From Planctomycetota bacterium (GTDB lineage Bacteria; Planctomycetota; B15-G4): DNA of 64,000 nt. The stretch covers positions 128,001-192,000 of the forward strand of contig JBBQUR010000001.1 of NCBI GenBank assembly GCA_038212275.1, read 5' to 3'. Every line of letters begins with the position of its first letter. The first letter of the stretch is position 1. The notes under the pieces are model-generated. The model saw only the letters and a program-made list of their open reading frames with translations, did no database searches and was not told the DNA's origin. The position numbers and the translations under genes are program-made. This document shows positions 15,901 through 27,673 of the stretch, in pieces.

Positions 15901-16027
15901 CAACCGCTGTCGCGCCCGATTCGGGGTGGGGCGCTCCCGTCAGGGAGGGGCCGGGAGGCGTAGGCTGCCCGGCGATTGGCGGGGACACCCTGACGGAACC
16001 GAGGAGTGCCTGCATCCTGTGAAGGCA

Positions 16028-16642
16028 ATGACTGGCGAGGCAACTGACGACGGCAGCTCCGACGCGGGGCCCCTGCCAGCACTCGCGCTGGACGCCCTGT
16101 GGCGTGAGCACCGGCGCTGGGTGGCGGCCATCCTGCTGGCCTACATGCCGCGGGAGGCCGAGCTGGATGACCTGCTCCAGGAGGTGGCCGTGATCTTCGT
16201 CTCCCGCATCGGCGAACTGCGCGATCGAGGTGCGCTGCGCCCGTGGCTGCGCACCATCGCGATCAACGCGGCTCGCATGGACGCCCGCGCGCGCCGCGCG
16301 CGCCGCGTGCACCTGCGTCCGCTCGAGGATCAGGATGGCGAGATGGCGCTGGCCGACCCGTCGGCCGAGCACGAACAACTCGCCTCGGACACGCGCGCCG
16401 AAGCCGAGGCCGTCATGCGCCTCGCGCGTGCGCTTCCCGAGGACTACCGCGAGCCGCTGCTGCTGCGCAGCGTCCAGGGGCTCACCCAGAAGCAGATCTC
16501 CGTCACGCTCGGTCTGCCGGAGACCACGATCGAAACGCGACTGGCCCGTGCGCGCCGCATGCTGCGCCAGCAGGTCGATGAAATGCACACCCCGCGCTCC
16601 GGCTGGCCGGAGCGCTCAGCCGCTCGAGTCGCGGCGCCGTGA
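16028..16642 (+). CDS. ECF sigma factor (ECF-1)
   Basis: Region 2 DDLLQEV...LRPWLRTIAIN; region 4 LPEDYREPLLL...GLTQKQISVTLGLPETTIETRLARAR. Confidence 0.9.
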   Translation: MTGEATDDGSSDAGPLPALALDALWREHRRWVAAILLAYMPREAELDDLLQEVAVIFVSRIGELRDRGALRPWLRTIAINAARMDARARRARRVHLRPLEDQDGEMALADPSAEHEQLASDTRAEAEAVMRLARALPEDYREPLLLRSVQGLTQKQISVTLGLPETTIETRLARARRMLRQQVDEMHTPRSGWPERSAARVAAP

Positions 16643-16649
16643 GGACACC

Positions 16650-17450
16650 ATGAACGACGACAACACGCTTGACCTGCTCCTCGGCCGCATCCTCGATCGG
16701 CGCGCATCGCCCGCTGACTGGGACTCGTTTGCGACGTTCGCCCAGGCGCGCCCCGACACATGGGGGCAACTCCTGACGGCTCTGCGATCGGAGCAGGGAC
16801 TGCAGCGCAGCGCGGACATCGAACTCTCCGTCGCGGACCTCGTCGACCTGCCACGCGAGGCCACCGTCGCATCTCTGGAGCCGGGCTCCGACACCCGCGG
16901 GACGTGGGCTGCGGTGCCGCCGCGAGTCGCGCGGCGTGCACGGCGCCCCTGGACTGGCTGGGCTGCGGCCGCCGCGCTGGCGCTCGCCTGGGCCGGCAGC
17001 ACGTGGCTGGCCACCGATGGCTCGGCGCAACGCGCCGCGACCGGATTGCGCGGCATCAACGGCGCACCGGTTGCGGCTGCGCCGCACGCCGAACCCGGGG
17101 CAGCCTCCGCGCCCGACGCAGCGCCTTCCGACCTCGGGCCCGGCAGCCGTGACGAGGCGCCGGTCGATCCCGCCTTGCTGGCGCAGGCCGGAAACACGGC
17201 GGGCCCGCGCCTGCGCGATGCAGCCGCACCCGTCGGCGACGACCTGCACGGCGACATCGTCGGTCAGCTCCCGCTCCAGCTCGTCAGCAGCGTGGCATCG
17301 GCCGACGGAAACGGACTCGATGTCGTCTACGTGCGCCCCGTGCTCGAGCGTGCGCGGGTCTCCGGCATGTACTCGCTGGGATTCGACGATGCCGGCCGCC
17401 TCTCACCCGTGAGCATCCAGCCGGCGTCCCTGCTGCTTGCCGACAACTGA
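16650..17450 (+). CDS. Putative transmembrane anti-sigma factor
   Basis: Starts 7 nt after the ECF-1 stop with a GAGG RBS. Cytoplasmic N-terminal domain, single TM (WTGWAAAAALALAW), extracytoplasmic tail. Confidence 0.7.
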   Translation: MNDDNTLDLLLGRILDRRASPADWDSFATFAQARPDTWGQLLTALRSEQGLQRSADIELSVADLVDLPREATVASLEPGSDTRGTWAAVPPRVARRARRPWTGWAAAAALALAWAGSTWLATDGSAQRAATGLRGINGAPVAAAPHAEPGAASAPDAAPSDLGPGSRDEAPVDPALLAQAGNTAGPRLRDAAAPVGDDLHGDIVGQLPLQLVSSVASADGNGLDVVYVRPVLERARVSGMYSLGFDDAGRLSPVSIQPASLLLADN

Positions 17451-17509
17451 TACCCAGCGCTCGGCGCCGCTCGTCGGCCGCCAAGCCATCCATGTCCGGA
17501 GACAGCCCG

Positions 17510-18790
17510 ATGAAGCTTCTGTTGAACAGCCTGGCCCTCGTTGTCCTGGCGTGCCAGGCCGCACCCGCCGCGCAGGACAGCGTCCGCATCCTGAAGACCC
17601 AGAGCATCAGCGACGACGACGCCGCGCAGGATGCCGCCCGTGCCCGCGGCCATGCGCAGATCACCGTGGACGACGACTCGCACGGCGCCTTGTCGCTCAC
17701 GCTGCAGCGCGACGGCTCGATCGAGGCGACGCTTGACGGCCAGGAACTCTCCGCCGACCGGCTCGTGCGGGACGGCGACCGCCTGCGCGTGCTCGGGGCC
17801 GGAGGCGAGCTGCTGTACGAGCTGCAGATCTTCGGCGACAACCGCGGCCTGGCATATCCCTATGGCGAGCACGGCAACACGTTTCGTATCGGCGGCATCG
17901 GCCTCGGTGGCCTGCATGCGCTGGAGAAGCTCAGCTCCAAGCCCCGGCATGTCATCGGCGTGGTGACCTCGCCCGTGTCAGGCGGCGTCGCGGCGCAGCT
18001 GGGCCTCGAGCCGGACAGCGCGCTGATCATCAACGAGCTCACGCCGGACATGCCTGCAGCCAAGGCGGGCCTGCTGCCCTTCGATGTCATCACGCACATC
18101 GATGGCAGCGCGCCGGTGACGCGAGACATGCTGCGCGAACGCGTCGCCGCCGTGGCGGTGGGGCAACCTCTGCATATCACGCTGCTGCGCCGTGGCCAGC
18201 CTCAGGAGCTGGAGGTCCTCGTCGGCGAGACGACCGACGAGGTCGGCCGTTTCCCCGGATCCTTCATGGCCAACCTGGCGGATGACGATGAGCGTGGCGC
18301 CTGGAATTTCGCCGTCGACACTCTCGCCGTCGGCCCCACGTCGGGATCCAACGAGTCGCTCGCGCGCGCGGACGTCGAACTGACCAATGCGCGTGACTCG
18401 CTGCAGAAGCGTCTCGAGGAATTGCGGGCCAAGGTGTCGCAGGGTGGCGTCGAGGGCGAGGCTGCGGCACAGGCCGCCGCCGAACTGGACGCCGCGCTGG
18501 CGAGCGTCGTCGAAGCGCAGGACTCGATGCGCCAGCATCAGGCCGGCACATCCCCCGAGGTGCGCTTCTTCAATCTCGGGACGGACGGCGACAAGGGCAT
18601 GCTGATGCGCCGGCCTGTGCGCATCGATGGGACGCCGGTGCCCTGGACAGGTGCGCTTGCAACGCCCGGCGCGAGCAGCGGCAGCGTGGAGAGCGATGCA
18701 CGTCTGCAGCAGATGGAAGCGCGACTTGCGCAGCTGGACGCGCGGGTTGCCGAGTTGGTCAAGGCGCTCGAGGCTGCCAACAAGCCGTGA
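17510..18790 (+). CDS. Secreted PDZ-domain/coiled-coil protein (no protease domain seen)
   Basis: GGAG RBS, signal peptide, PDZ motif IGV...PAAKAGLLPFDVITHIDG...LLRRGQ, C-terminal heptad repeats. Confidence 0.8.
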   Translation: MKLLLNSLALVVLACQAAPAAQDSVRILKTQSISDDDAAQDAARARGHAQITVDDDSHGALSLTLQRDGSIEATLDGQELSADRLVRDGDRLRVLGAGGELLYELQIFGDNRGLAYPYGEHGNTFRIGGIGLGGLHALEKLSSKPRHVIGVVTSPVSGGVAAQLGLEPDSALIINELTPDMPAAKAGLLPFDVITHIDGSAPVTRDMLRERVAAVAVGQPLHITLLRRGQPQELEVLVGETTDEVGRFPGSFMANLADDDERGAWNFAVDTLAVGPTSGSNESLARADVELTNARDSLQKRLEELRAKVSQGGVEGEAAAQAAAELDAALASVVEAQDSMRQHQAGTSPEVRFFNLGTDGDKGMLMRRPVRIDGTPVPWTGALATPGASSGSVESDARLQQMEARLAQLDARVAELVKALEAANKP

Positions 18791-19600: not shown

Positions 19601-20610
19601 CGGGGCTCTCCTGAGTTGGGAACTGGAACGGGGTCTGTGCGGGAAGGAGGCAGCTTGGCGTCGGGCGGCGCCGTCGTCTCCGCGAGCGGCAGATCGATGA
19701 CAAAAAAGCGTGCGCGCGCCGGAGCGGTCTCGGACTGACTCGCGTAGCGCACGTCGACCCAGCCCTTCAACCGGTCGCCGGGCCGGAGGTCACGGGCCAG
19801 GTGCAGCCGCAGTGTGTCGCCGTCCGCGGTGCCTTCGTCCACCAGGAAGGGGAGTTCTGCGCAGTCTTCGGCGGGAAGCAGCGTGATGGTGGTGGCGCCG
19901 GGTGCGACGAGGCGCACGGCGTCGGCGAGGCGTTCGGCCCGAATCGGTGAGGTCGGTACGGTCGGTACGGTCGGTGCGGTCGAGTCGGTCGCGGTCGGCC
20001 AGGCTTCGGGCAGCCGGGTCGCCGTGGCTGCAAAGAGCGCGGCCGATGCACTGGCCGAGGGCGAGCTCTCCGGCGCAGCCACGAGCAGGGGCAGGGCCAC
20101 GTCGGCGCCGCCGACCACGCAGGCCTGGTCGCAGACCAGCCACTCGAGGTGCGCGCGCAACGTGACCGTGTCACCCGGCTGCGCGTCGGCCGGCACGCGC
20201 ACGTCGAACATGAGCAGGACTTCGTCCTCGTAGACATGGTCCAGCAGCGGCCCGGGTGACAGGTGCCGATGAGGCACCGGCCACAGCACGGGGTCGGCCT
20301 CCCAGCCCGGAGGCAGTTCGGGCCTGACCAGCACCGGCAGGCCGCTGTCGTTGCGTGCTGCGGCATAGACGTGCCAGCCGGCCTCCAGGACCAGGCGCAC
20401 GCCCAGCCGGAGCACCGAGCCCGGGACGGCGGCGTCCTGCGCGGCGAGCAAGCTGGCGGTGACGTGACCGGCGCGCTCGGCGCGGGCGCCGTTGTCCGCT
20501 GGTGTGGCCTGAGCCGGAGCCCTCGACATGGTGGCCGCGGTTGCCACCAGAAGCGCCAGAACGCCTGTCAGCGCGGCGGAGATCGACAAGCTGCGTCTTC
20601 TGCCGGACAT
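19597..20610 (-). CDS. DsbD N-terminal-like (protein-disulfide reductase) domain protein
   Basis: Motifs GWHVY...DSGLP...WP.P and WLVCDQAC; signal peptide; ATGA overlap with the redoxin; TATGAT 7 nt before ATG 20610. Confidence 0.8.
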   Translation of the reverse strand: MSGRRRSLSISAALTGVLALLVATAATMSRAPAQATPADNGARAERAGHVTASLLAAQDAAVPGSVLRLGVRLVLEAGWHVYAAARNDSGLPVLVRPELPPGWEADPVLWPVPHRHLSPGPLLDHVYEDEVLLMFDVRVPADAQPGDTVTLRAHLEWLVCDQACVVGGADVALPLLVAAPESSPSASASAALFAATATRLPEAWPTATDSTAPTVPTVPTSPIRAERLADAVRLVAPGATTITLLPAEDCAELPFLVDEGTADGDTLRLHLARDLRPGDRLKGWVDVRYASQSETAPARARFFVIDLPLAETTAPPDAKLPPSRTDPVPVPNSGEPR

Positions 20611-20803
20611 CGGAGCGATCATAGCCTTGCACCGGCGGTTGTCCGTGCCGCTCCCGCGGTGCCACCTCCGGGTCACGTGCCGCGCCCTCCGGCGCACCGA
20701 GCTCGCGCGCGACGACGAGTCGCGGTGCAGTCGCCGAGCGGTGGAAGCCATGCGGCAGCGGCCGGATACTGCGGCTCGGCCGGAACGTTCCGAGTCGCGG
20801 CGG

Positions 20804-20834
20804 GCGAAGGATCAGCCCGACTCGACACACCAAG
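20804..20834 (+). promoter_or_regulatory. Candidate ECF-2 autoregulatory promoter
   Basis: GCGAAGGAT-N15-CACCAAG; identical boxes and spacing recur at 24391-24421. Confidence 0.7.
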
Positions 20835-20928
20835 CCTTGCGCGCCCCCGTCGCAAGCGCTCCCTTCTCCCACCCGGGCGGTTGGAGGGGGCACCGTGACC
20901 AGGCGCCCCTTTCCAGGAGACAGCCGCC

Positions 20929-21531
20929 CTGACCTCCGCACCCCACGCTGCCGACCTCGGGCTCCGCGATCGCATCGTCGGTGGCGACAGACAGGCAGCG
21001 GCCCTGCTCTTCGAAGAGCACGTGGACGCGCTCTACGAGTTCGTGCATTACCGGGTCGGCAGCGACCGCGCACTGGCGGAAGACGTCGTTCAGGACACCT
21101 TCGTGATCGCCATCGAGAAGATCGCAGGCTTCCAGGGCAGCAGCAGCCTGCGCACGTGGTTGTGCGGGATCGCCCGCAATCTCATCCGGTCGGCACGGCG
21201 CAAGCGTCGCGCGGCCAGCCTGCCTGACCTGCTCGAGGGCGCCGACGACCGCATCTTCGAAATGCTGGAGGAAATCGAGCGCACCGAACTGCCGGAGTGG
21301 GCGCTTCAGCGGCAGGAGACCGCTGCACTCGTCGGTGCGACGCTCTCGTCGCTGCCGCCCGACTACCGTCACGCGCTCCTGCAGAAGTACGTGGAGGATC
21401 TCTCCGTGGCCGACATGGGTGCCGTCAATGGTCGCGGCACCAAGGCCACCGAGTCGCTGCTCACGCGCGCACGCGTTGCTTTCGCACGCGTGTTCGCGCT
21501 GCTGAGCGGCGGCGCGGGAGGTGCTGCATGA
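20929..21531 (+). CDS. ECF sigma factor (ECF-2), probable CTG start
   Basis: Motifs AEDVVQDTF, FQGSSSLRTWL, LPPDYR, ESLLTRAR. The frame stays open upstream of GTG 21022 with DLGLRDRIVGGDRQAAALLFEEH. AGGAG lies 9 nt before CTG 20929. Confidence 0.85.
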   Translation: MTSAPHAADLGLRDRIVGGDRQAAALLFEEHVDALYEFVHYRVGSDRALAEDVVQDTFVIAIEKIAGFQGSSSLRTWLCGIARNLIRSARRKRRAASLPDLLEGADDRIFEMLEEIERTELPEWALQRQETAALVGATLSSLPPDYRHALLQKYVEDLSVADMGAVNGRGTKATESLLTRARVAFARVFALLSGGAGGAA

Positions 21532-24266
21532 GCTCCGGGAGCGAACGGCGCGCGTCGGATGAATCGGTGTTCGAACGCAATCTGCGTGCCTTGTTGACCC
21601 GTTGCTACCAGCCTGCGAAGGCCGACCCCGCGTTCCGCGCACGCGCACGCGCCGCCTGTCTCGCAGCGGTCCTGCCGTCGGCGCGCGGGGCGCCGGACGT
21701 CCGCGTCGCCGGCGCCGACCGGCGGTCTGCGCGAGGCGAGCGCAGGCAGCTGCCGGGGTGGACGCGCGCTGCTGCGGCCCTCGCGGCGCTGCTGCTCGTC
21801 GCCGTCCCGGCCACGCTGTGGTGGATCTCCGAAGCTCGCGGTGACGGCCGCCGCGACGCGATCCTCGCGCGCGGTGAGGTCGCGGCGCGCTGCGGACCGT
21901 CCGAGCGCTGGCAGGCCTTCGGAGCGGACGAAAGCGACGGCCCGGACGACCGCGATGTCGCGCACGCCGTCCTGGCCTCCGGCTCTCTCCAGGTGGTCAC
22001 TCCCGCCGGGCTCGGACTCGATGTGGAGCTGCCGGATCTGCCGGCGGCGACGGGCGCCTGCATCGACCCCGCGAGCCGCGTCCGGCTCGAGCGCACCACT
22101 GGCCTGGAGGCCGAACTCGAGCAGGGCGGCTTGAGCCTGACATGCGCAAACTCGGGGCCGGCATGGACCCTTGCCACGCCGCAAGGAGCGCTGGAACTCA
22201 CGGACGGCTCGCTCACCGCGCGCGTGATCGGGGCGGAGGGCGGCGGCCCGGCGGGCGCCGTCTGGCTGCTGCTGGATGGAAGCGCCGCGCTGCGTGGTGC
22301 TTCCGGTGCACGGTCGCTGCCCTCGGGACGCGCGGTCTCGCTGAGACTCGGCGCGATCACGGCGTACGCCGCGGACGACGACGCACACGTTGCCGTCCAC
22401 CCCGGCCCCGGTTTCGTTCCGCCGTCCGTCGCGCGTCCTCCGGAGCCGCTGGATGCCGCGGAACTCGCCGGTGAACCGGGCAGCGCTGCGACGGCGGCGC
22501 TCCCGACGGCGAACCTCCCGGCGCCGCGCGTGCTCCAGGGCAGCGTGTTGAGCGGCGGCGCGCCGGTGACCTCGTTCGCCCTCGTGCTCGTGCCGCAGGA
22601 CGTGCCGCCTCGGGCCGAGGTCGAGCGCCTCGAGGTGTCCGCCGCGGATGGACGTTTCCGCTGGGCCGATGTCGCACCGGGGAACTACGTGCTTTTCGTC
22701 CTGGCTCCCGCGGCGCCTGCGTGGAAGCGAAGCGGCGTGGTGGTGACGGCGAGCGAGCCGCTGCAGCCGCTCGTCGTGGAGCTCGATGCGAACGGCGCCA
22801 TGGTGTCAGGCTTCGTGACGGACCGCGCGACGGGCGAACCGCTGGCCGGCGCCGTCGTGTTGAGCGAGACCGACGCACCGGCGCGCCTGCTTCCGCTGGA
22901 CGGCTCGCCGATGCCGGAACTCGTGACGGTGCTCGCCGTCACCGACGAGCTCGGCTTCTTCCAGCTGGACCGGCTCACCGCAGGGCAGCAGTTGCTGCGC
23001 GCCACGGCGAGCGGGCACGCGCCCGACTGGTCGGGCCCGCTCACGGTGCAGCCGGGCGAACACGCCGAAGGCCTGCTGTTCCGGCTGGCGCCGGAGGCGC
23101 GCGTGCGCGGCCATGTCCTCGGCGCCGATGGCTTGCCCTCGGTCGGCGCCATCCTGATCGGTTCGCCGCAGCCGGACACGCTGCGCCCCTGCGTGAGCTA
23201 CTCGTTTGCAGCGACCGGCGACGACGGCTCCTACATGCTCGGCAATCAACCCGCGGGCGCGGGCATCGTGATCCTGCTGGGCGATGACGAGGCGCGCGCG
23301 TCCGGCACGCCGCCGCGGATCCAGGCGACGAGTCTCTCGCCGGGAACGGATGCCGTCGTCGACTTCACGCTCGCGCCTGCCGTCGCGGAGGCAGCGGCTC
23401 TGCCTTCAGCTTCCGTCGCGGCGGCTGACGCCGGCTGCCGCCTGCGCGGCCGCGTGCTCGGACCCGATGGCGCCGCGGCGCCATCAGCCATGATTTCGCT
23501 CGTGCGCGAGGATGCTCCTGCCGCGAAGGCGTCGGAGCAGTGGGTCGGCGCGATGACCGCACCGGATGGCAGCTTCGATGTCCCCGGCCTCAGTCCCGGC
23601 ACGTGGGAACTCTTCATCGGCGACGGCGACGGCACGAGCCTCTGCCGCGTGTGCACGGTGGAGGTGCCTGCGGCCCGCGAACTGGTGCTCGACGTGTCCT
23701 TGACCGGAGGCTCGCTGGCCGGGCAGGCGACGAGCGAGGAGAGCGGGCAGCCCGTGAGCCGGGCGCTGCTCATCCTCATGCGGCGCGACGAGCCGAGCGG
23801 CCAGTGGTCATTCCACGGACGGCAGCTCGCGGATGCGTCGGGACGTTTTCGATTCGAGCACCTCGCTGCCGGCCGCTACGAGTTCACCGCGCACGACATG
23901 GACGGCGTGCTGGCCGCGAGCTCGAGCGGCGACGTGCTGCTCACGCAGGATCAGGATCTGGATGGCCTCGATGTCGCACTGCGGCTCGGCAGCGCCCTGC
24001 TCGTCCGGGTGACGGATGCACGCGGCGCGCCCGTGGCGGATGCGCTGGTGATCCTCACCGACGCGGCCGGCACGAGCCGGCAATTCGCCGCGTCGCCAAG
24101 GACCGGCGCGGAGGGCGTCCTGCGCTCGGCCGGCATGCCGCCCGGCCTCTGGCGGGTCGCCGTGAGCGCGCCACCGGAAGCAGGGCTCGTGCCGCGCGAG
24201 GTCTCGGTGGAGCTGCGCGTCGGAGAGGCTGAGGAACTGGAGCTCGTGCTGCCCGACGCCCGTTGA
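21528..24266 (+). CDS. Anti-sigma factor-like TM protein with a FecR-like region and several carboxypeptidase-regulatory-like beta-sandwich repeats
   Basis: ATGA overlap with ECF-2; one TM; LEQG...TPQG FecR-like strands; about six 'G.V....G.P..GA.V...T..DG.F....L.PG.Y' repeats. Confidence 0.75.
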   Translation: MSSGSERRASDESVFERNLRALLTRCYQPAKADPAFRARARAACLAAVLPSARGAPDVRVAGADRRSARGERRQLPGWTRAAAALAALLLVAVPATLWWISEARGDGRRDAILARGEVAARCGPSERWQAFGADESDGPDDRDVAHAVLASGSLQVVTPAGLGLDVELPDLPAATGACIDPASRVRLERTTGLEAELEQGGLSLTCANSGPAWTLATPQGALELTDGSLTARVIGAEGGGPAGAVWLLLDGSAALRGASGARSLPSGRAVSLRLGAITAYAADDDAHVAVHPGPGFVPPSVARPPEPLDAAELAGEPGSAATAALPTANLPAPRVLQGSVLSGGAPVTSFALVLVPQDVPPRAEVERLEVSAADGRFRWADVAPGNYVLFVLAPAAPAWKRSGVVVTASEPLQPLVVELDANGAMVSGFVTDRATGEPLAGAVVLSETDAPARLLPLDGSPMPELVTVLAVTDELGFFQLDRLTAGQQLLRATASGHAPDWSGPLTVQPGEHAEGLLFRLAPEARVRGHVLGADGLPSVGAILIGSPQPDTLRPCVSYSFAATGDDGSYMLGNQPAGAGIVILLGDDEARASGTPPRIQATSLSPGTDAVVDFTLAPAVAEAAALPSASVAAADAGCRLRGRVLGPDGAAAPSAMISLVREDAPAAKASEQWVGAMTAPDGSFDVPGLSPGTWELFIGDGDGTSLCRVCTVEVPAARELVLDVSLTGGSLAGQATSEESGQPVSRALLILMRRDEPSGQWSFHGRQLADASGRFRFEHLAAGRYEFTAHDMDGVLAASSSGDVLLTQDQDLDGLDVALRLGSALLVRVTDARGAPVADALVILTDAAGTSRQFAASPRTGAEGVLRSAGMPPGLWRVAVSAPPEAGLVPREVSVELRVGEAEELELVLPDAR

Positions 24267-24299
24267 ATGGCGGCGCACGCTGCATTGCCCCTCGGCGGG

Positions 24300-24365
24300 G
24301 CGAGGTGGTCGCGAGGTGGTCGCGGGGTGGCCGCGAGTTGGCCGCGAGTTGGCCGCGAGTGTCTC
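24300..24365. repeat. 11-bp tandem array (6 units)
   Basis: gcgaggtggtc gcgaggtggtc gcggggtggcc gcgagttggcc gcgagttggcc gcgagtgtctc. Confidence 0.8.
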
Positions 24366-24390
24366 GTGCCGTCGCCGCGGAGAACGTTGC

Positions 24391-24421
24391 GCGAAGGATT
24401 CCTTCGGGAAGCGGCACCAAG
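24391..24421 (+). promoter_or_regulatory. Candidate ECF-2-dependent promoter of the TPR gene
   Basis: GCGAAGGAT-N15-CACCAAG, ending 81 nt before ATG 24503. Confidence 0.7.
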
Positions 24422-24502
24422 AGATCGCGTGGTGCGGCAGGTGCCGACATCACTCTCGTCGCCAGCCACACGGCCGCGGATCGGCCGATCGGAGAGAACT
24501 GC

Positions 24503-25408
24503 ATGAAGCCCGTCCCGCAACTCGTGCTCACCGTCGTCGTCGCGGGACTCACGTCCGTGGCGGCCGTCACGCTGTTCGCTCCGCCGGATGCGACCGGCGT
24601 CGCAGCGAAGGGTGCATCGACCGACGCTCGCGTGGCCGCGCTGGAGACTTCGCTCGCGGCGCTGCAGTCCGGGCAACGCACGCTGGGGGCCAGCCTCGAC
24701 GGTGTCGCCCTGCGCCTTGCCGCGTCGGCGCCGCGTGACGGCGTTCAGCCGCTCGAGGATCTCGAAGCCACCGTGACGCGAGTGCTCGAACAGCGTGAAG
24801 CCGCGAAGCAGGCGGCCACGGCTCTTGCCGCCGCGAGCGCGGAGGGTGCCGCCGGGATGGACCTCGACGACGCTGTCGCCGCGCTGCTCGACCCGAACCT
24901 CGATGCCGCGGCGCGCACGGCGCTGTGGCAGAAGGTGCGCGAAGCCGGGCTGCTGGACGAAGTGCTGGCCGTGTACGAGGCCCGCGCGAAGGCCAACCCG
25001 AACGACCCGTCGGTGCAGGTCGAACTCGGCGAGGCCTACCTGCAGAAGATCTTCGAGGTGGGCAGCGGTCCGCTGGCCGGCGTGTGGGCCAACAAGGCGG
25101 ATGGCGCCTTCGATGCAGCCCTCGCGCTCGACGATCACAATTGGGAGGCGCGCTTCACCAAGGCCGTGTCGCTGTCCTTCTGGCCGCCGATCTTCGGCAA
25201 GCAGCCCGAGGCCATCTCCCACCTCAAGACGCTGCTGAGCCAGCAGGCAGGCCAGCCCAAGTCGCCGCAGTACGCGCAGACCTATCTGATGCTCGGCAAT
25301 CTCTATGCGCAGCAGGGGAACAGCGCCGAGGCGACCAGCATGTGGAAGCAGGGGCTCTCCGAGTATCCGAACGATGCGGCGCTGCTGGAGAAGACCGGGA
25401 CGCCGTGA
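24503..25408 (+). CDS. Membrane-anchored coiled-coil/TPR protein
   Basis: GGAG RBS, N-terminal hydrophobic segment, coiled coil, TPR helices (ELGEAYL, ALALDDHNWEARF, YLMLGNLY...GLSEYPND). Confidence 0.8.
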   Translation: MKPVPQLVLTVVVAGLTSVAAVTLFAPPDATGVAAKGASTDARVAALETSLAALQSGQRTLGASLDGVALRLAASAPRDGVQPLEDLEATVTRVLEQREAAKQAATALAAASAEGAAGMDLDDAVAALLDPNLDAAARTALWQKVREAGLLDEVLAVYEARAKANPNDPSVQVELGEAYLQKIFEVGSGPLAGVWANKADGAFDAALALDDHNWEARFTKAVSLSFWPPIFGKQPEAISHLKTLLSQQAGQPKSPQYAQTYLMLGNLYAQQGNSAEATSMWKQGLSEYPNDAALLEKTGTP

Positions 25409-25528
25409 GCGCCGACGTGCGGCGGGGCTGTGACGGATGCACTGCACGCCTACCGCATCCGGGGAGGCGCGGCTAGACTCCCGCGCATCACCTTCGACTC
25501 CTGCCGACTCTCCACGGTGCTGTTGCCG

Positions 25529-27673
25529 ATGTTCCTGCTCTCGCGGATGTCGCGCATTTCCTGCGCAGCCTTGTTCGTGGCCGCGACCTCGACCCCGGTC
25601 TCCGCCGCTCCCTTGATCCAGGGCCTGGTGACAGCTGCGGGCATCGAGCCCTCACGGCCTCCCAGCGTCGGCCACGTGGTGCAGGTGCTTCCCCCGGGCG
25701 CGTTCGAGTCCGTGCTTCCCGACGACACGGTGCTCTGGATCGGCGTGGATCACGTGGCCGGCCTCCGGCGCCACGCCGCGGCCTCCGCCGTCGGCCGGAT
25801 GCTGCAGGACCCGGCGATGGCACCGACGCTGGCATCGCTGATGCGCGAGTGCTCCGACATGAAGGCCCGGCTGCGTGAGGCACTCGGTGACGATCCGACG
25901 GAGTTGCTCGACTGGCTGGACGGCCCGGCGGCTCTGGCCATCACCATGCCGCGTGGCACGCAGGACGCGCCGGCGGAGAACGGGCCGCGGTCTGTTGCGG
26001 TGCTGCTGCTGGCGGATGTCGGCGAGCACCAGCGCGAAGTGGCGGCGCTGCTTTCGCGGCTGGTGGCGCGCCTCGCCGAGCGCGACAGTCGGCTGGAGGT
26101 CGGCGAGCGGATGTCGGGCGACGTTGCGCTGACCACGCTCGCGCCGTCGGCGTACGCCGGGAGCCCGCCTGGCGCCGATGACGACGCCGACGATCGGGCC
26201 GCCGACGCCGCAGACGACGCCGACGACGCCGCAGACGACGCCGCCGACGCCGCAGACGACGCCGCAGACGACGCCGCCGACGCCGCAGACGACGCCGCCG
26301 ACGCCGCCGACGCCGCAGATGCCGCAGATGCCGCCGACGCGGACGCGGACGCGGACGACGCGGACGACGCTGCGGGCGACGCCCACGCCGGCATGCCGGA
26401 AGGCCTCCTGAGTTACGGCTTCCGCGGCCCGCTCCTCGTCGCCTCGTTCGAGTGGGAACCGGGAGCACGGCACGCCCTGGACGATGTGCTGCTGGCGCTC
26501 GATGCCCCGTCGGCGCAGGCCCGGGGCCTCCCTCCGTCGCTCGCCTCGCGCGCGGACTTCGCGACTTCGCAGGCCAGCGTGCCTGGCGACGTGCGCTGCT
26601 GGGCCGACGCCGGCGGCTTCACACGGCTGATGCTCGAGCGCGAGGCGTCAGGCGATGCGCAGGGCGCAGAGTCGCGTCGAGTCCAGGAGGCGCTCGGCCT
26701 CCCTGAACTCGGCACGCTGTCGCAGAGCCTGCGCTGTGACGCCCATGGTTCGGACTGGTCGGCCGGCATGATCTGGGAGGGTCAGGGCTACGTCCCGCGC
26801 CTCATGCGGCTGCTGTGCCGGCCCGGCGAGACCCGCACGCTGGCCTGCATGCCCGAGGACTGCCGTTCGGCCGTCGTCGCACACGTGGATCTGCCAGGCC
26901 TGTTCGACACCGTCATCGACATGCTGCTCGACCTGCACGTCGCGAAGCCGTCGGACATCACGGATGTGCTGGCCCGGGCCGAGGGAATGCTCGGATTCAA
27001 TCCGCGAGAAGACCTGCTCGAGCTGTTCGACGGGGAGATCGGTTTCGTGACCGTGGGCACGGACCGCGAGGACGCGTTTCCGGGCACTGCACTCGATCCG
27101 TCCAATTTCGGCCTCCTGGTCGGCCTGGCGGACGGCGCGTCGCTGGCGACGCTCGTGGATGATGCGATCGACGCGAGCAGCCTGCGGGGTGCGCGCAAGC
27201 TCGAGAGCTTCGAGGGCGTGAGGATCGACCACATCACCCTGCTGCCGCCGCTGTCGCTGCACTACGCGATCCTCGGCGACGTGCTGCTCGCGTCGCACAG
27301 TGATGCCCTGCTCCACGAGATGCTGCGCCGGCACGAGCATCCCGAGCTTGGCTCGCTCGCGACGCTCCCGGCATTCCGGGAGGCGCTCGCCCGGCTGTCC
27401 GGGCCGCACGGCACGCTCGGCTACTCGGACACGGCGGCGGAGCTCGAGGGCCTCATCCGTTCCCTCAAGCTGCTGCCCGACTTCCTGAAAGGCATCGCGG
27501 CGGGCATGAACGCCTCGGATACGGACGACGTGCCATGGGCCGGCGGGATGGACTGGCTGACCTCGCTGCCGCTGCCCGAGCCGGCTCTCGTGCGGCAGTA
27601 CATCAACGTCCCGACGATCACCTCGATCACAGTGGACGAGCACGGTGCTCGGCTGCGCAGCCTCGGCCCCTGA
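25529..27673 (+). CDS. Secreted DUF3352-like protein with an Asp/Ala repeat insertion
   Basis: Signal peptide; two internal 'LP.D/MPED...V' half-domains; start uncertain (25430, 25529 or 25547). Confidence 0.6.
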   Translation: MFLLSRMSRISCAALFVAATSTPVSAAPLIQGLVTAAGIEPSRPPSVGHVVQVLPPGAFESVLPDDTVLWIGVDHVAGLRRHAAASAVGRMLQDPAMAPTLASLMRECSDMKARLREALGDDPTELLDWLDGPAALAITMPRGTQDAPAENGPRSVAVLLLADVGEHQREVAALLSRLVARLAERDSRLEVGERMSGDVALTTLAPSAYAGSPPGADDDADDRAADAADDADDAADDAADAADDAADDAADAADDAADAADAADAADAADADADADDADDAAGDAHAGMPEGLLSYGFRGPLLVASFEWEPGARHALDDVLLALDAPSAQARGLPPSLASRADFATSQASVPGDVRCWADAGGFTRLMLEREASGDAQGAESRRVQEALGLPELGTLSQSLRCDAHGSDWSAGMIWEGQGYVPRLMRLLCRPGETRTLACMPEDCRSAVVAHVDLPGLFDTVIDMLLDLHVAKPSDITDVLARAEGMLGFNPREDLLELFDGEIGFVTVGTDREDAFPGTALDPSNFGLLVGLADGASLATLVDDAIDASSLRGARKLESFEGVRIDHITLLPPLSLHYAILGDVLLASHSDALLHEMLRRHEHPELGSLATLPAFREALARLSGPHGTLGYSDTAAELEGLIRSLKLLPDFLKGIAAGMNASDTDDVPWAGGMDWLTSLPLPEPALVRQYINVPTITSITVDEHGARLRSLGP
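26175..26380 (+). repeat. In-frame GAC/GCC-rich tandem repeat encoding an Asp/Ala tract
   Basis: Units gccgcagacgac and gccgacgcc; encodes DDDADDRAADAADDADDAADDAADAADD... Confidence 0.9.

Follow-up and report, generated by a model that had tools for sequence, protein, structure and literature searches.

Within the window, a stretch of 64,000 nt from a Planctomycetota bacterium (contig JBBQUR010000001.1, positions 128,001 to 192,000), the bipartite motif GCGAAGGAT-N15-CACCAAG occurs twice in one gene cluster, which raises the question of which protein reads it and which genes depend on it. The cluster consists of DsbD_N and redoxin genes in divergent orientation, site 1, the gene of ECF-2 (an extracytoplasmic function, ECF, sigma factor), a gene encoding a 912-aa membrane protein, site 2, and the gene of a 301-aa tetratricopeptide repeat (TPR) protein, tpr. 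The original prediction described two identical copies of the motif, and they are indeed exact, both intergenic and on the plus strand, with unrelated 15-nt spacers, at 20804-20834 and 24391-24421. Our comparative analysis suggests that ECF-2 itself probably reads the motif as its promoter; we consider this prediction real and well supported by the sequence data. The predicted promoter follows a familiar regulatory plan in variant form, and its conservation is broader than was initially noticed. The joint reading, in which ECF-2 reads the motif, is restrained by an anti-sigma factor and switches on its own gene, tpr and, in relatives, an exporter, the regulon being small, appears to us highly probable.

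The motif and its conservation upstream of ECF-2 orthologs

The predicted ECF-2 promoter, P1 (20804..20834, plus strand), consists of the -35 element GAAGGAT at 20806-20812, the N15 spacer and the -10 element CAC(CAAG) at 20828-20834. The predicted internal tpr promoter, P2 (24391..24421, plus strand), has GAAGGAT at 24393-24399 and CAC(CAAG) at 24415-24421. The genome scan proposed with the original prediction shows that the copies at 20804 and 24391 are the only exact matches to GCGAAGGAT-N15-CACCAAG in the whole genome of 4,650,915 bases (4.65 Mb), and with up to two mismatches spacers of 12-18 nt give 0-4 further matches each. No match was found in 100 dinucleotide shuffles of the sequence, a post hoc test, since the copies themselves supplied the pattern; the real evidence for the motif is its conservation.

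A de novo search in the upstream regions of 29 orthologs (own genome excluded, one site per sequence forced) returned the motif cGAAGGAT-N15-CAC(C/T/A)N(A/T), with training scores from 11.0 to 27.6 bits. The own-genome site scores 24.4 bits against this motif, and seven distant ECFs score at most 3.4. Among the training sites, the -10 score averages above zero at N15 and at no other spacer. In held-out orthologs, 12/17 reach 12 bits at N15/16, compared with 1/17 and 4/17 at control spacers and 0/17 on the reverse strand. The weight matrix built from the ECF upstream regions of 29 other genomes ranks P1 and P2 first and second among all N15 sites of the genome (27.1 and 23.7 bits), and among its 34 ECF-like genes only ECF-2 is preceded by an N15 site. 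Hence the presence of the motif upstream of orthologs, on which the original prediction was made to depend, is observed.

The orthologs come from Planctomycetota records, nearly all of them metagenome-assembled. Related sigma factors occur in 71 of the 401 genomes of a phylum sample, and a protein search at E 1e-40 or better yields at least 694 clusters (90% identity). When ECFs are ordered by falling similarity, the -35 core is present upstream of 30/35 (a bin that includes the own genome), 10/11, 22/30 and 8/13 of them, and of 6/61 distant ones (reverse-strand controls for the five bins: 6, 1, 4, 1 and 8). In the wider clade the -10 block becomes (T/G)GACA, one base further on. Judging from these upstream regions, the motif is conserved 5' of one ECF sigma family across Planctomycetota, with (C)GAAGGAT-N15-CAC as its conserved core. 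No ortholog (0/45) matches all 16 bases of the original word, so CAAG is a local, lineage-specific variant; GAAGGAT-N15-CACCAA is found in 4/45. Accordingly, of the CACCAA -10 element proposed originally, the CAC part holds, while CACCAA(G) is a variant mostly at the level of a family, the conserved -10 element being CAC(Y/A)N(A/T). A rigid bipartite motif on the coding strand, retained 5' of orthologs, is what characterises an ECF autoregulatory promoter.

Start codons show a regular offset from the motif. At the exporter sites described below, an ATG or GTG lies exactly 10 nt after CAC in 7/11 cases; in ECF genes, the distance from CAC to an in-frame start is 9 nt in 7/38, 11 nt in 5 and 12 nt in 4, with none within 0-8 nt. 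This resembles the pattern of leaderless mRNAs and would match the -1/+1 positions of the register proposed in the next section, which predicts transcription starts at approximately 20841 and at 24427-24428. Both are pyrimidine-purine steps.

Two further observations concern the surroundings of the sites. The word GAACGTT stands 5' of both (20781-20792 and 24382-24388) at differing distances, inside a perfect 12-bp palindrome at site 1; it is not evident in the ortholog motif. The third-ranked N15 site of the genome (20.0 bits; G000 C3:175618-175646, minus strand) is located just 5' of the start of a gene encoding an 842-aa secreted repeat protein, within the same open frame.

Sigma-4 residues of ECF-2 and the -35 element

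ECF-2 (20929..21531, plus strand) is a protein of 200 aa with sigma2 and sigma4 and no sigma3, the composition of ECF group 4 (Pfam Sigma70_r2 and r4_2; TIGR02937 at 74.4 bits, the cut-off being 42.9), and its best PDB matches are AlgU, SigW and RpoE. It scores 289.4 bits on the profile of its family; the next best paralog in the genome reaches 82.6. Translation appears to begin at the CTG at 20929-20931, to judge from the AGGAG located 9 nt ahead of it, the in-frame TGA at 20896 and the identical arrangement in the ortholog from genome G006 (L082); such a weak start could keep the sigma factor below anti-sigma levels. Two other starts were considered: GTG 21022 was rejected, as it truncates sigma2, and a frameshifted start at GTG 20895 is unsupported, the contig (not an independent source) being without an indel and G006 having the same CTG.

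Alignment to E. coli RpoE places Lys, Glu, Ser, Thr and Arg of ECF-2 in RpoE positions 168, 171, 172, 175 and 176, respectively (the Lys/Glu pair is K172/E175 in its own numbering). The -35 element follows this pair: a -35 score of at least 9 is seen for 68/78 sigma factors with K168/E171, 1/10 relatives without the pair and 3/59 distant sigma factors. In L200, a tandem pair of K168/E171 ECF genes has a motif copy for each gene.

Moreover, a nested sister subclade of seven sigma factors has Lys171 (SH-aLRT 96, from a quick tree; the ECF of L011, with an internal stop, was left out of alignment A1). The pattern CG[ACT][AC]ACCT-N13/14-[GT]ACA precedes 6/7 of these K171 sisters, compared with 0/78 K168/E171 sigma factors and 0/65 others. 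In the same six, CGACACCT, CGCAACCT or CGTAACCT replaces CGAAGGAT, with the spacing kept and a GACA-type -10 element. Members from Myxococcota that were fetched later follow in 4/4 cases, having CGACACCT (three) or CGACACGT (one) with N13-TGACA. The sister clade (L014, L015, L016, L155, L185, L193, L202-L205) comprises Myxococcota and some Planctomycetota, including the cultured Enhygromyxa salina, and its motif, CGACACCT/CG(C/T)AACCT-N13-TGACA, is itself promoter-like.

According to passages of Todor 2020 (PMC7776599), residue 171 governs nucleotides -32/-31/-30, residue 168 governs -33, residue 176 is assigned to -35, and residue 84 to -13/-12. In the part of dataset S3 concerned, Lys171 selects C-31 at 0.98, and Glu, Ala and Gln in position 84 favour CA/CG at -13/-12; these residues are common in this position among the sigma factors studied here. 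The switch in the sister clade matches these partial assignments, and the selection of C-31 by Lys171 therefore sets the register as G-35 A A G G-31 A-30 T-29, in which 16 nt would separate -30 from C-13 A-12. Thus base and specificity residue covary for position 171 with -32 to -30, while Ser172 and -34 fit poorly. The unusual -35 element is likely explained by Lys168 and Glu171, which replace Gly and Arg.

Proposed target genes, the predicted anti-sigma factor and the TPR protein

The original prediction also proposed a three-part system of ECF, surface-sensing anti-sigma factor and TPR output protein, in which surface sensing and output are putative roles. The two sites 5' of ECF-2 and tpr are confirmed, P2 proves facultative, and relatives add a fourth part, an ABC-2 exporter. 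A site equivalent to P2 is found 5' of tpr in 12/35 relatives (36 rows less one duplicate; one further site is borderline at 11.6 bits), as opposed to 2.1% of random 200-nt windows, mostly where the gap between the anti-sigma and tpr genes is at least 82 nt. Where P2 is missing, tpr probably belongs to the operon simply as its third gene; a search of 20500-25700 for terminator-like sites found none.

The additional target, found by pattern searches in relatives, is a gene pair encoding the ATPase and permease of the exporter. Among the best 30 of 35 matches in the class, the motif precedes the ATPase gene in 10/12 genomes with the sigma factor and 0/18 in which it was not found (0/13 when only matches at E 1e-80 or better are counted), and genomes of both kinds occur within families f1 and f2. 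Outside the class, an ABC homolog (E 1e-65) is present in 3/25 genomes, and one of these three has the site (17.1 bits). The strict pattern gives 62 matches in 29 ECF-bearing genomes, compared with 31 for the reversed control. Only the ECF, TPR and ABC targets are supported, since no two of the 38 matches outside the known targets have homologous downstream open reading frames (ORFs). The 18 runner-up N15 sites in the own genome share no target with relatives, and a wider regulon there is not supported, given this and the lack of an N15 excess. One relative (G004, L216:1632-2186) has a near-consensus site before a secreted DUF1579 gene, a target not shared elsewhere.

The gene adjacent to ECF-2 (21528..24266, plus strand; ATGA overlap with the ECF-2 stop) encodes the predicted anti-sigma factor of 912 aa. 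Pfam and structure prediction give N-terminal helices at 12-26 and 34-48, a transmembrane (TM) helix at approximately 77-104, a FecR/PupR-like beta domain at approximately 118-290 and five CarboxypepD_reg Ig-like repeats. Foldseek matches the beta domain to PupR (6OVK, E 2.5e-6) and Parabacteroides BDI_1681 (4M0H, E 5.5e-5), and Pfam FecR is detected in 1/31 members. For residues 1-75 with ECF-2, the predicted complex has an ipSAE of 0.72, the best control having 0.00 (the mark used is reached by 116/157 solved complexes and 2/215 mismatches); contacts span sigma2, the linker and sigma4, with agreement between runs of at least 93% and partner pLDDT of at least 67. Resemblance to sigma/anti-sigma complexes of known structure may contribute to the score. 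The product is thus predicted to be an anti-sigma factor binding ECF-2, with the N-terminal helices and single TM segment of class I membrane anti-sigma factors.

In the wider clade, the genes in position +1 share the N-terminal anti-sigma motif, whereas the ectodomains vary: in 40 neighbouring proteins scanned they are Ig-like repeats, FecR-VIT-vWA-TPR, HEAT, TPR or none recognised. Giant putative anti-sigma factors of about 1,850-2,080 aa occupy position +1 of L141, L142, L147, L149, L155, L157, L160, L174, L175, L177 and L178; the four scanned (L147, L155, L174, L178) contain FecR and VIT, plus vWA or TPR.

The TPR protein (24503..25408, plus strand; 301 aa) has an N-terminal hydrophobic helix, being a signal or an anchor, followed by long helices and a C-terminal TPR superhelix, with the conserved block W-x-x-R-F-x-K...S-F-W-P-P. 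A fold search gave generic TPR matches only. The TPR ortholog is present in 14/15 genomes with the ECF and 1/8 without it; in one relative (L001:7223-8961) the gene stands in two tandem copies.

Taken together with known ECF systems, these features suggest how the circuit could operate. The N-terminal helices of the membrane anti-sigma factor would keep ECF-2 inactive until a signal at the periplasmic FecR-like and Ig-like domains frees it, possibly by regulated proteolysis, as in known class I and FecR-type anti-sigma factors. Freed ECF-2 would transcribe the ecf-antisigma-tpr operon from P1, giving positive autoregulation, and extra tpr from P2; in relatives from the class, it would induce the ABC-2 exporter from the third motif copy. 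The regulon appears small and local; from its targets, a response concerned with the envelope or with export seems probable.

Two other features of the neighbourhood may be mentioned. A second ECF cluster (ECF-1, 16019-18790), 2 kb upstream, includes a putative anti-sigma factor and a PDZ protein; ECF-1 (16019) lacks the motif (3.9 bits), and hence no cross-regulation of it is seen. Directly 3' of tpr, a large ORF (25430-27673) without a Pfam match contains a low-complexity tract rich in Asp and Ala.

Alternative explanations and relation to known ECF systems

That the motif is the cognate ECF-2 promoter with a non-GGAAC -35 element, as originally proposed, is supported by the motif upstream of orthologs, the covariation with sigma-4, the ECF-dependent ABC target and the start codons at the predicted +1. 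Several points weigh against this reading. In the part of dataset S3 of Todor 2020 (PMC7776599) that concerns these residues, the preference of Glu171 is weak (G 0.33, T 0.29, C 0.21, A 0.17), and G-34 is favoured by Ser172 (0.83), where the best register has A (0.13). The K171 swap amounts to about one evolutionary event; these three points leave room for an error of one base in the register. A clear site is missing in some close orthologs (L166, L167; weak in L162), and there is no N15 excess genome-wide (40 matches of at least 14 bits, compared with 32-85 at other spacers). P2 is missing in 23/35 relatives, and at E 1e-55 an ABC ortholog is absent from the own assembly, which is 91% complete. 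Because the genomes compared are related, they do not count as independent, and Fisher p values overstate; so does that for the ABC association, whose genomes are also incomplete, those without a found ECF being metagenome-assembled. Finally, we infer ECF-2's release from the anti-sigma factor, and the signal for it, by analogy.

A bipartite site could also suit a two-domain regulator, in which case the motif would be an operator bound by another transcription factor with joint control of these genes. We find this extremely unlikely: the motif is non-palindromic, strand-specific and rigidly spaced, its first block changes along with sigma residue 171 while the second stays, it travels with the sigma gene despite differing neighbours and anti-sigma ectodomains, and start codons lie 9-12 nt past the second block. 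ECF cascades are known, and with 34 ECF-like genes in the genome the promoter might be read by another, upstream sigma factor. This is very unlikely, given the distance of the next best paralog from the family profile, the loss of the ABC site where the ECF was not found (0/18 among the best 30 of 35 matches) and the covariation of the -35 element with the helix of the ECF-2 family itself. It seems improbable, too, that P1 alone is functional, the second copy having arisen by chance or as a neutral duplicate. In favour of this, 23/35 relatives are without the site, tpr being there mostly close behind the anti-sigma gene; against it stand the site in the same place in 12/35 relatives, mostly at gaps of at least 82 nt, its rarity in random windows, and a P2 spacer unrelated to that of P1 in a site among the top-scoring ones of the genome.

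Within the promoter reading, the role of the TPR protein is less clear-cut. It may be a periplasmic partner of the anti-sigma factor, that is, a feedback regulator rather than an output effector; RseB/MucB or the signalling domain of TonB transducers play comparable feedback roles elsewhere. The PupR-type fold of the anti-sigma factor, the presence of a TPR gene instead of a TonB-dependent receptor gene in position +2, the co-occurrence of the TPR ortholog with the ECF and the TPRs fused to the anti-sigma factor in distant clade members agree with this. However, the fused TPRs are not detectably of this TPR family, and a separate promoter raising only tpr suits an output protein at least equally well. 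We lean towards an output role and regard that of a partner as a tentative alternative.

Compared with class I systems (E. coli RpoE, B. subtilis SigW), ECF-2 is similar in having sigma2 and sigma4 only in about 200 aa, a one-TM anti-sigma factor in position +1, a bipartite upstream motif with a spacer of 16-17 nt as defined by Todor, and a small local regulon. It differs in its -35 element (GAAGGAT, not of the GGAAC/TGTAACC type), in a -10 element beginning with CAC, and in the recognition helix, where K168, E171 and T175 stand in place of G, R and F of RpoE. The FecI/FecR and PupI/PupR systems (FecI-like groups such as ECF239) are resembled by the periplasmic domain, which folds as in PupR CCSSD and BDI_1681, and by Pfam FecR matches in distant clade members; unlike in FecI/FecR, the anti-sigma factor carries a fusion to five CarboxypepD_reg repeats. 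ECF-2 does not belong to the FecI/FecR type, because a TPR gene and no TonB receptor gene is in position +2.

The group descriptions in the supplement passages of Casas-Pastor 2021 (PMC7826278) each share one feature with ECF-2, be it domain, phylum or motif part: a carboxypeptidase-regulatory domain in ECF54, ECF57s3, ECF216 and ECF255; Planctomycetes with a 1-TM anti-sigma factor in ECF46, ECF213 and ECF226; the -35 elements TTTGAAGGG and CCCAAGGA in ECF253 and ECF289; and GTAACCTT / GGCACATT in ECF264. By the same passages, ECF54, ECF216, ECF255 and ECF253 come from phyla other than Planctomycetota, a TM extension is present at the C terminus of ECF57, and ECF46, ECF216 and ECF226 are without a conserved promoter. 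These passages describe a GAAGGAT/CAC promoter for no ECF group: GAAGG has one match (ECF253), AAGGA one (ECF289) and GGAT two unrelated ones. ECF213s4/s7 (Planctomycetes, no motif predicted) are a possible home group, compared by description only. GAAGGAT, CGAAGGA and GACACCT have no matches in the supplements of Todor 2020 (PMC7776599) other than the promoter-bearing datasets S1/S2, and none of the full-text literature matches for GAAGGAT with ECF promoter is on planctomycetes by title; further literature searches listed no account of such a system. The group may already be contained in Jogler 2012, Wiegand 2020 (30 planctomycete groups), the ECF group HMMs or Todor datasets S1/S2.

A bolder generalisation, which we consider doubtful, is that these sigma factors form an ECF group spread across the phylum and so far unclassified (at least 694 clusters), with a sigma-4 code of its own in which K168/E171 reads GAAGGA and the K171 swap GACACC, with FecR-type anti-sigma factors that have interchangeable ectodomains and no TonB receptors, and with the secreted TPR protein standing in for the receptor as the periplasmic partner in this clade.

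ECF sigma factors abound in Planctomycetota; their groups, as far as the passages cited describe them, mostly lack a predicted promoter. One planctomycete ECF family now gains a predicted promoter, a predicted start site and a proposed specificity code for which nature provides a swap as control, together with a short predicted regulon consisting of the sigma factor itself, the anti-sigma factor, the TPR protein and the ABC-2 exporter. The system suggests that FecR-type signalling may proceed with no TonB receptor. An ECF reading GAAGGAT and a sister reading GACACCT would extend the ECF protein-DNA code, and the two would be candidate orthogonal switches.

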